IMG/VR virus record: IMGVR_UViG_3300013099_000164
Source of the DNA: a virus
Direction: 5' to 3' (one strand)
DNA: 16,725 nt
This document shows, piece by piece, positions 1,994-2,347 of the stretch. The position numbers were made by a program, and so were the translations under genes. Positions within the stretch are counted from its first letter, which is position 1. Each line of letters starts with the position of its first letter. Under the pieces are notes generated by a model. The model was given only the letters and a program-made list of their open reading frames with translations. It made no database searches and was not told where the DNA came from.

Positions 1994-2021
1994 GATTTTT
2001 ACTAGTTTTATTTGAAAACTA

Positions 2022-2134
2022 GAGGGTGCACTGGCTACCATATAGGCCAGAGGTTTTACCTGTTACCATACAACATGGAGGGTGCACTGGCTACCATATA
2101 GGCCAGAGGGTGCACTGGCTACCATACAGGCCAG
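2022..2134 (+). repeat. Three ~29-bp direct repeats (GAGGGTGCACTGGCTACCATATAGGCCAG); copies 2 and 3 abut and copy 3 carries one mismatch
   Basis: The copies sit at 2022-2050, 2078-2106 and 2107-2134. Each holds an internal CTGGC...GCCAG inverted repeat. They are embedded in a locally GC-rich non-coding island. Confidence 0.8.
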
Positions 2135-2347
2135 CGGAGTTTGAACGTTTCACCACAGGAAGCGTCTATTCGTCGAGAACTACGTTTGAAGTGTTTGCAC
2201 TGCAATGCTTAACACATGTTCTACCCGGTTCGAAGCTGCAGCGGTAGAACCGGTTTTGGAGAAATAGTTTAAGTATCGTAAAAACGCGCCGCTTCGGTAG
2301 CATGGTATGGGCGACCTACCTTTCTCCACTAACTAAAATTAGGAATT

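Follow-up and report, generated by a model that had tools for sequence, protein, structure and literature searches.

What kind of element occupies the GC-rich block that lies upstream of a major-vault-protein (MVP)-like gene in the IMG/VR virus record IMGVR_UViG_3300013099_000164? We analysed the whole stretch of 16,725 nucleotides (hereafter, the window), which consists of low-GC DNA (~32%) with essentially every gene on the plus strand, and focused on the island at positions 1994-2340, where the GC content reaches 0.45-0.46 in 300-nt intervals (over 1951-2400) versus ~0.29-0.36 in the flanks. The original prediction, made from the letters alone, had recognized there a markedly GC-rich non-coding segment, a description borne out by these values and by the lack of any conserved reading frame. 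It had proposed as candidates an iteron-type replication origin or partition site, a binding array for a regulator, or a structured non-coding RNA (ncRNA). Our results favour the last one: the element is conserved in six other contigs, with compensatory changes in its hairpins and core and a tRNA-like module at its 3' end. Judging from its sequence and predicted folding, the island is most likely the gene of a ~335-nt structured ncRNA, and that this element is a functional structured RNA appears highly probable. Its parts are the following:

1994-2328, plus strand: whole predicted ncRNA element, with hairpin array, central domain and tRNA-shaped tail (nhmmer homology).
2002-2022, plus strand: first array hairpin, stem CUAGUUUU/AAAACUAG, loop AUUUG (RNAfold; aligns with the first hairpin of the homologous locus L001).
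2022-2133, plus strand: four contiguous 28-nt units (2022-2049, 2050-2077, 2078-2105 and 2106-2133).
2031-2050, 2059-2078, 2087-2106 and 2115-2134, plus strand: hairpins of the four tandem units.
2145-2165, plus strand: sixth hairpin, ACGUUUC/GAAGCGU with loop ACCACAG, equivalent to helix 1 of the central-domain model.
2166-2224, plus strand: central conserved block, helices 2 and 3 of the family model (alignments A2 and A5).
2225-2253, plus strand: conserved hairpin CCGGUUC-GAAGCUGCAGCGGUA-GAACCGG, helix 4.
2258-2328, plus strand: 71-nt tRNA-shaped module, whose minimum free energy (MFE) fold is a four-arm cloverleaf.

The repeat GAGGGTGCACTGGCTACCATATAGGCCA occurs exactly at 2022-2049 and 2078-2105 and with one mismatch at 2106-2133, against an expectation of 0 from 200 shuffles. 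The three direct repeats initially described as 29 bp long are thus real, but their period is 28 nt, the 29th base being the first G of the next unit; likewise, the copy placed at 2107-2134 exists but starts at 2106, with a T>C change. With a repeat finder, the segment between copies 1 and 2 (2050-2077) turned out to be a fourth unit, diverged but forming a hairpin of its own. Each unit within 2022-2133 is made of a linker GG-GUGCA/UUUUA, a 6-bp hairpin with loop ACCAUAYA, and AGAGG. The stem CTGGCT/GGCCAG (6 bp, 8-nt loop) confirms the CTGGC/GCCAG inverted repeat noticed in each copy. The hairpins at 2002-2022 (preceded by UUUUUA and followed by AGG) and 2145-2165 flank the four-unit array and have the same design, so that unit folding yields six hairpins within 1994-2165, all with single-stranded GG-UUUUA or GG-GUGCA, a stem of 5-8 bp, a CCA-Y-A-containing loop and AGAGG. 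Further downstream, the CCGGTTC...GAACCGG hairpin is present, although at 2225-2253 instead of the predicted 2227-2255, and the GCTTCGG element expected near 2290 was located at 2291-2297. A covariance model of the unit (R1) scored 37.4 bits at 2024-2053 and 2080-2109. Within the window, the 28-mer was found only at the array, with no dispersed-repeat signature, and a 22-mer core of the unit had no match in IMG/VR. The 20-mer hairpin matched a single orthologous Methylobacter coding gene in GTDB genomes, which we discarded as a chance match.

To characterize this element comparatively, related loci were retrieved via the MVP gene: 20 from IMG/VR and 77 from metagenomes, with MVP homologues of 38-100% identity and some duplication between both collections. 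They were searched with nhmmer using the window element and that of L001 as queries. The window element matched full-length in L140 and in part in L001 (identical to L080), L079, L109, L075, L077 and L003, amounting to seven distinct copies including that of the window and to six other metagenomic phage contigs. L140 (contig Ga0164313_10006867) is a near-identical copy of the window, with two single-nucleotide differences. Only one of them affects the element (2135 C>A, position 3894 in L140), so that the fourth linker reads CAGAGG, the family consensus, instead of CAGCGG. The comparison of the L001 and L140 elements (nhmmer E 8.5e-13) provides support that is independent of the models trained on the window.

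The arrays contain ~4-7 hairpins per copy, spaced by ~28 nt. Their stems differ in nearly every unit, both within and between arrays (CUGGCU, CUAGU, CUGAUU, UCGGU, CCGGA, GUUGGCU and others), yet pairing is kept. What is conserved across units is the loop U-N-C-C-A-Y-A-U-A, the stem base CUG/CAG, the single-stranded linker AGAGG-UUUUA and an A before the stem, with the linker GG, one loop C and one loop A being invariant. Of the cells in a 16-unit alignment, 87.5% were paired, and all five scored pairs had changed on both sides. Neither the pairing nor the covariation observed was reached in any of 500 shuffles, and pairing in slid registers fell to 19-57%. The copies maintain this pairing and these invariant residues though their MVP genes share only 66-73% identity.

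The central domain (~105 nt) comprises four scored helices, including the last array hairpin and a 7-bp CCGGUCU...AGACCGG hairpin. Sixteen of its 23 pairs have changed on both sides and 88.7% of the cells are paired, values reached by 0 of 500 shuffles, with slid registers at 30-55%. These changes include double-sided replacement of five of the seven pairs in helix 1 (2145-2165) and of six of the seven in helix 4 (95.8% of cells paired over seven sequences). The window has the most diverged central block, with a 12-nt insertion. The core model R2 scored 63.8 bits in the window (E 2e-9, over 2137-2253) and 64-110 bits across the seven copies; as R1 and R2 were trained partly on the window, their matches there are partly circular. 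We propose to define the family by at least three tandem units matching R1, followed by a match to the core model R2, a definition under which the window element belongs to it. Together, R1 and R2 detected all seven copies and nothing further in 600 kb of related loci, and four motif scans of IMG/VR carried out independently of MVP recovered only L001, itself an MVP-bearing contig. The family therefore appears rare and restricted to one clade.

The element ends in the tRNA-shaped module. In the window, its acceptor-type helix (GGAGAAA/UUUCUCC) has 7 bp and is accompanied by a D-like arm, by an arm in which a loop of 3 nt replaces the anticodon loop, and by a 5-bp stem (GGUAG/CUACC) that stacks on the acceptor; the discriminator A2328 is followed by CUAA. 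The acceptor-type helix occurs in six of the seven copies with four different sequences (7/7 pairs in five copies and 6/7 in one), followed by a discriminator A and C(U/C/G)A. At the position of the module, L109 has a genuine tRNA-Leu(CAA); L003, a near-perfect cloverleaf with a 6-nt 'anticodon' loop that ARAGORN calls as an aberrant tRNA; and L001, L079 and L077, an acceptor stem plus T-arm minihelix with GGUUCGAAUCC. These last three loci also carry GGTTCGAATCC, found as the variant GGTTCGATCC in L109. We rejected a true tRNA in the window, where the module has a 3-nt instead of a 7-nt anticodon loop, has no UUCRA T-loop and is not called by the detection programs, and also a transfer-messenger RNA, none being found by ARAGORN or Rfam and both acceptor strands lying within the last 71 nt. 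Since the acceptor/T-stem stack has been retained repeatedly as the anticodon arm degenerated, the tail seems to be maintained as a recognition site for tRNA-processing enzymes and not for a role in decoding.

The element is absent from Rfam 15. Scans of the window and the homologous loci at gathering and permissive thresholds retrieved only tRNA and GOLLD families nearby, none of them covering the element, and ARAGORN found nothing in 1994-2340. Using blastn against GenBank phages, the window element had no match and the L109 element matched by its tRNA part only; we found no description of the element in the literature searched. Among the motif searches in IMG/VR, a three-linker pattern gave 46 matches, nearly all in coding repeats, the helix-4 loop motif matched only coding sequences, and the core motif recovered only L001. 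We found no consistent local antisense partner for the loop or the linker. A role of AGAGG as a sponge of Shine-Dalgarno mimics looked unattractive, given that the window genes have AT-rich leaders without Shine-Dalgarno sequences. Several loci binned as giant viruses (L024 4700-4841; L042 1-110; L056 ~1100-1260, minus strand; L046 7530-7630) contain arrays of 34-37-nt units made of GAGGTTTTAC plus a perfect hairpin, with a conserved GC-rich stem before the array and a terminator-like hairpin at its end. Their linker matches that of the window element but their loops differ; with R1 scores of only 14-15 bits and a different context, we judged them unrelated.

All copies are located on the gene strand in a tRNA-dense region, 0.3-2.4 kb upstream of the MVP-like gene and co-oriented with it. 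In L001, L075, L077 and L109, GOLLD (RF02032, 155-163 bits, with an embedded tRNA) is found 100-880 nt upstream of the element. The Rfam match appears to span the conserved 3' region of GOLLD, which would place the element past the GOLLD 3' end, as a separate module. No GOLLD was detected in positions 1-3300 of the window (at gathering threshold or E<=1, nor at E<=10 over 1900-2450), in L140, whose sequence reaches 1.76 kb further upstream than the window and covers 3.75 kb ahead of the element, or in L003. Its only neighbours in the window are two protein genes, one on each side, and the element therefore seems to work as an autonomous module. R1 and R2 did not detect it in three other GOLLD-bearing loci, L073, L078 and L112. 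The GOLLD RNAs and other GC-rich blocks of these regions are located as follows:

L001 3579-4063, L075 2275-2753, L077 2806-3286 and L078 2780-3259: GOLLD RNAs, 155-164 bits.
L109 3122-3607, L073 3357-3840 and L112 2827-3316: GOLLD RNAs, 155-164 bits.
L003 5116-5760, L073 3900-4540, L078 3300-3840 and L112 3400-3745: GC-rich non-coding blocks.
L005 4650-5070 (also in L010 and L141), L075 3560-3715, L082 3800-4000 and L077 3670-4260: GC-rich non-coding blocks.

All seven GOLLD matches have an embedded tRNA-like segment ~75 nt from the match start and lie 1.2-2.2 kb upstream of the MVP-like gene, so that the gene of an RNA nanocage and that of a vault-shell-type protein are syntenic in this clade. 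The GC-rich non-coding blocks, which are long and situated between GOLLD and tRNA-Leu(CAA), share recurring conserved motifs such as GAATTCGTAGTAAG...CCTAAGGTAGTACCGG and GGGCAAACGCCGGCATAG...GGTTCAAATCC. Strong intrinsic terminators close several of them. As no Rfam family was matched at the thresholds applied, these blocks probably represent additional structured RNAs or tRNA-like modules that have yet to be described. By eye, the blocks that follow GOLLD in L073, L078 and L112 have short motifs in common with the core of our element, whereas R1 and R2 were silent there. In addition, an open reading frame (ORF) of L001 (4142-4909), endonuclease-like by eye and clustering with ORFs of L079 and L109, is located between GOLLD and the hairpin array, suggesting that the RNA island is a target of mobile endonucleases.

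Structured ncRNAs of phage tRNA islands are a known kind of element; the modular architecture described here is new. GOLLD and ROOL, both encoded in phage tRNA islands, belong to this kind, and GOLLD forms a 14-mer nanocage (PMC12286853). Our element shares with them a phage origin, a high GC content, a structured non-coding nature and a location within or beside a tRNA island, and also the linkage to a tRNA, which GOLLD sometimes carries in its linker. By contrast, it did not match their Rfam models even at E<=10 (at least 150 bits being our threshold for GOLLD), it is ~335 nt long versus >800 nt for many GOLLD RNAs (PMC12286853), it alone has iterated 28-nt hairpin units, and it also occurs without GOLLD (window and L003). 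The ~4-7 short motifs on or between hairpins are reminiscent of CsrB/RsmZ, ToxI and TRAP-binding leaders and, by analogy, would suggest multivalent binding of a partner that is abundant or oligomeric. However, unlike Csr/Rsm sponges, the conserved GG is in the linkers instead of a GGA in the loops and there is no Rfam match, and the units are not near-identical 36-nt pseudoknot repeats as in ToxI. We scanned 19 window ORFs against Pfam and some of them also against PHROGs; no CsrA-type or toxin gene was found among the flanking ones. A type III (ToxI-like) antitoxin was also rejected, the downstream gene coding for a 74-aa membrane protein with a weak match to DUF2339 and the first terminator-like site being at 3158-3184.

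A tRNA-shaped module with a stacked acceptor/T-type stem directly 3' of a structured ncRNA is also seen in MALAT1-mascRNA and in the bacterial YrlA/Y RNA, from which our element differs by the absence of Rfam matches and by having the module at its 3' end, not embedded in a closing stem. No Ro/Rsr family member was found among the ORFs scanned. The solitary repeat units known as RNA anti-CRISPRs (Racrs) are likewise phage-encoded and spacerless hairpin-plus-flank units without cas genes nearby (PMC10651486). They differ from our tandem units with varying stems, fused to a core and a tRNA-like tail, which have no promoter of their own beyond chance sites and matched no host repeat in an exact search. 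The element is not a CRISPR array either, as already argued in the original prediction: its units abut without spacers, its stems differ between units, and none of the 19 ORFs scanned belongs to a Cas family. Finally, a structured RNA gene beside an MVP-family gene evokes the eukaryotic vault RNAs. These are ~90-140 nt long, and our element is much longer; moreover, it has no match to the Rfam Vault family, most phage MVP loci do not contain it, and synteny is the only link.

Building on the observed repeats, hairpins, conservation and covariation, tRNA-like module, non-coding status and genomic context, we propose a tentative mechanism for this RNA. The element would be transcribed together with the surrounding plus-strand genes or the tRNA island. 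RNase P might then read the acceptor/T-stem stack of the tRNA-shaped module and cut on its 5' side, which would release an RNA made of array plus core and set its 3' end. On its variable stems, the released RNA would expose several loop and linker epitopes that are nearly the same from unit to unit. It might then serve as a sponge or scaffold, a multivalent platform on which a sequence-specific partner binds or cleaves each unit. In tRNA punctuation and in MALAT1-mascRNA, RNase P fixes the 3' ends of the upstream RNA and, by analogy, the release of upstream RNA would be the simplest role of the tail. This particular combination of processing and platform remains speculative, a possibility worth pursuing more than an expectation; for the explanation as a whole, a modular phage ncRNA operating through such a mechanism, we lean towards it by a narrow margin.

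Several observations weigh against this interpretation. The seven sequences belong to a single phage clade in which synteny and function are not separable, and their shared ancestry inflates the shuffle statistics. The MFE z-scores of the whole element are modest (-2.5 and -2.1). L075 has no tRNA-like tail but a different, terminator-like one, and the window module (2258-2328) was not called by ARAGORN or Rfam and does not have the T-loop consensus (UUCRA). No promoter or terminator brackets the element, promoter-like sites being no more frequent than expected by chance. The locus L070, which has the closest MVP relative (88% identity), shows at the syntenic position, before the conserved gene of the 74-aa membrane protein, a plain AT-rich spacer; the element is therefore dispensable. 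Lastly, we found no binding partner and, apart from MVP, no protein family co-distributed with the element.

How does a structured RNA compare with the other ways of explaining the locus? A protein-coding function can be dismissed with near certainty. The 73-aa ORF at 2026-2247 does exist in frame 3, but the period of 28 nt places successive repeats in different reading frames, the ORF matches no Pfam family and no frame is conserved among homologues, in line with the initial view that it was not credible. In the six homologous elements no frame is open on either strand, in substance also when TAG is read as sense (1-14 stops in every frame; longest forward-strand open stretches of 40-54 codons); instead of a conserved coding gene spanning the region, relatives have the same non-coding element. 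A DNA-level element (an iteron origin, a partition site, an attP with arm sites or an operator array for a dimeric regulator) would account for tandem direct repeats, each with an inverted repeat, in a non-coding island, and the tail resembles the tRNA 3' fragments present in many attP cores. Nevertheless, the stems vary with complementarity kept, within and between arrays, and sequence is conserved only in single-stranded features; such variable complementary stems with invariant loops and linkers imply selection on a folded single strand, i.e., on RNA and not on a duplex DNA site. Furthermore, the cumulative GC skew, proposed as a test for an origin, rises smoothly and monotonically through the site without inflection, the GC-rich island has no AT-rich unwinding region, and none of the ORFs scanned was identified as a replication, partition or integrase gene, those flanking the element having no or weak Pfam matches. 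The attP idea was abandoned because both acceptor strands are present and covary. We therefore exclude the iteron, partition and regulator-array candidates of the original prediction and regard any DNA-level role as very improbable. A decaying remnant of a tRNA array without function of its own would agree with the degenerate tRNA found as 3' module in most copies and with the dispensability seen in L070. Yet array and core are not tRNA-like, and they keep their pairing through many compensatory changes together with invariant loop and linker residues, both of which neutral decay would destroy, leaving this explanation with a slim chance.

The remaining alternatives accept an RNA but give it other tasks. 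The array and core might be an RNA-only architectural element that forms or extends a self-assembling particle of the GOLLD/ROOL type, with the U-N-C-C-A loops acting as T-loop-like modules docking on the linker GG or making loop-loop contacts between copies. The loops do resemble T-loops, and the linker GG is similar to the GG found in the D-loop at the tRNA elbow; position 4 of the T-loop motif, however, is a purine and the putative T-loop has a C there. GOLLD and ROOL build their nanocages via kissing loops and A-minor contacts (PMC12286853), the proximity of GOLLD in four loci points in the same direction, the invariant loop C/A and linker GG would suit a code of tertiary contacts, and many loops contain a palindromic UAUA. 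Conversely, the window, L140 and L003 have the element without GOLLD and L073, L078 and L112 have GOLLD without the element, and invariant positions offer no covariation to demonstrate a loop-linker contact, which makes this architecture unlikely though worth keeping in mind. We also consider it rather unlikely that the array serves as decoy or substrate of an endoribonuclease specific for hairpins. It could be a Racr mimicking Cas6-type repeats or an antitoxin-like (pseudo-ToxI) repeat RNA, cut at each linker and titrating a host defence nuclease. Hairpins with conserved single-stranded flanks placed head to tail have the architecture of spacerless CRISPR repeats. The stem base CUG/CAG is the most conserved part of the stem, and Cas6f reads the type I-F repeat at its stem base. 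A window unit is 20/28 identical to a type I-F repeat consensus, ~3.5 standard deviations (sd) above shuffles, but the likeness to that consensus is weaker in the other members tested (~1-2 sd in four units, none in d4). Phage Racrs are known, although as solitary units with their own promoter and a close match to a host repeat (PMC10651486). The stems, moreover, vary from unit to unit within one array, an exact search of the hairpin 20-mer in 185,579 GTDB genomes found no array, and no toxin gene follows the array. The fusion to a conserved core and a tRNA-like tail would be superfluous in a simple decoy, and Bacteroidota, the likely host phylum, are not known for type I-F systems. The element might also be the RNA part of a compartment made by the phage, either ribonucleoprotein or RNA-only, in which it would be cargo or scaffold of an MVP shell or an accessory docking on the GOLLD nanocage via its T-loop-like hairpins, the tRNA-shaped tail serving as a processing and targeting handle; taken jointly, we consider these versions improbable. 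Close to the first of them is the idea that the MVP-like protein of the phage has this RNA as its partner, be it as cargo, scaffold or regulator; such a link to vaults was advanced as a speculation in the original prediction because of the MVP gene 1 kb downstream, and the RNA would be a vault-RNA analogue. The gene is indeed there, in all seven loci MVP is the only shared protein family and is co-oriented with the element at the short distance given above, and the searches that did not use MVP led only to an MVP-bearing contig. But the loci had been retrieved via MVP, which builds in the association, and ~28 of ~35 distinct MVP loci with enough upstream sequence do not have the element, including L070 with its 88% identical MVP. 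The flanks fetched for distant MVP loci (5-6 kb) contain no tRNA, no Rfam Vault family matched, and eukaryotic vault RNA binds TEP1 rather than MVP. The vault link thus stays at the level of synteny-based speculation, with a low probability.

The rest of the window informs about the phage and its host. The additional features are these:

971-1035: odd tRNA call of 65 nt with the 4-nt anticodon 'ccag' (ARAGORN; Rfam tRNA 23 bits, sub-threshold).
3158-3184: terminator-like 12-bp palindromic hairpin with T-runs on both sides, by appearance a bidirectional intrinsic terminator.
3242-5677, plus strand: MVP-like gene, 811 aa (Pfam MVP_shoulder 2.1e-29, Vault_3 2.2e-10, Band_7 9e-6).
6757-8517: 586-aa protein with a C-terminal type IX secretion system (T9SS) sorting domain (Por_Secre_tail 9e-15).
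11012-11653: homing endonuclease ORF (phrog_655, 4e-44).
12889-12962: suppressor tRNA with anticodon CUA, tRNA(CTA), 56.8 bits.

The MVP relatives are encoded in IMG/VR contigs of up to 482 kb and in the uncultured huge-phage genomes LR756500, LR756501 and LR756503 (462-735 kb), from which it follows that the window DNA derives from a huge phage. A tblastn search with MVP in GenBank phages found only three unannotated genomes of uncultured huge phages, with ~50% identity, and the literature searched contained no paper on phage MVP. The T9SS sorting domain suggests that the host of this phage clade is probably a member of the Bacteroidota, and the AT-rich leaders of the window genes are consistent with a host of this type. 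A radical-SAM protein is also encoded in the window. Many related loci also have the suppressor tRNA(CTA) downstream of their MVP gene; only one of the 26 plus-strand ORFs of the window terminates with TAG, and reading TAG as sense produces several longer ORFs, which suggests a partial or stage-specific recoding of TAG in this phage. The hairpin at 3158-3184, between the small ORFs and the MVP gene, is the sole terminator-like site in 1200-3300. The odd tRNA at 971-1035 starts just past the ORF at 737-967, inside a minus-strand ORF (905-1117), and may be a further degenerate tRNA-like element.

The tRNA islands of huge phages hold giant RNAs, such as GOLLD and ROOL, whose functions are unknown despite their solved cage-like structures. 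To the tRNA/GOLLD island, our element adds a compact modular RNA whose design rules are unusually clear: a hairpin that is iterated, loop and linker residues that stay fixed, and a tail derived from a tRNA. All members of the family known so far come from a single clade of huge phages, where they occupy this island ahead of the MVP-like gene. If it were cargo or scaffold of MVP, it would be the first analogue of vault RNA outside eukaryotes; were it no more than an accessory RNA confined to one lineage, it would still be a new Rfam candidate. Its size of ~335 nt makes it an experimentally tractable entry to the phage RNA islands, and it could reveal what these islands do and whether they have any tie to the equally unexplained MVP-like protein of these phages.

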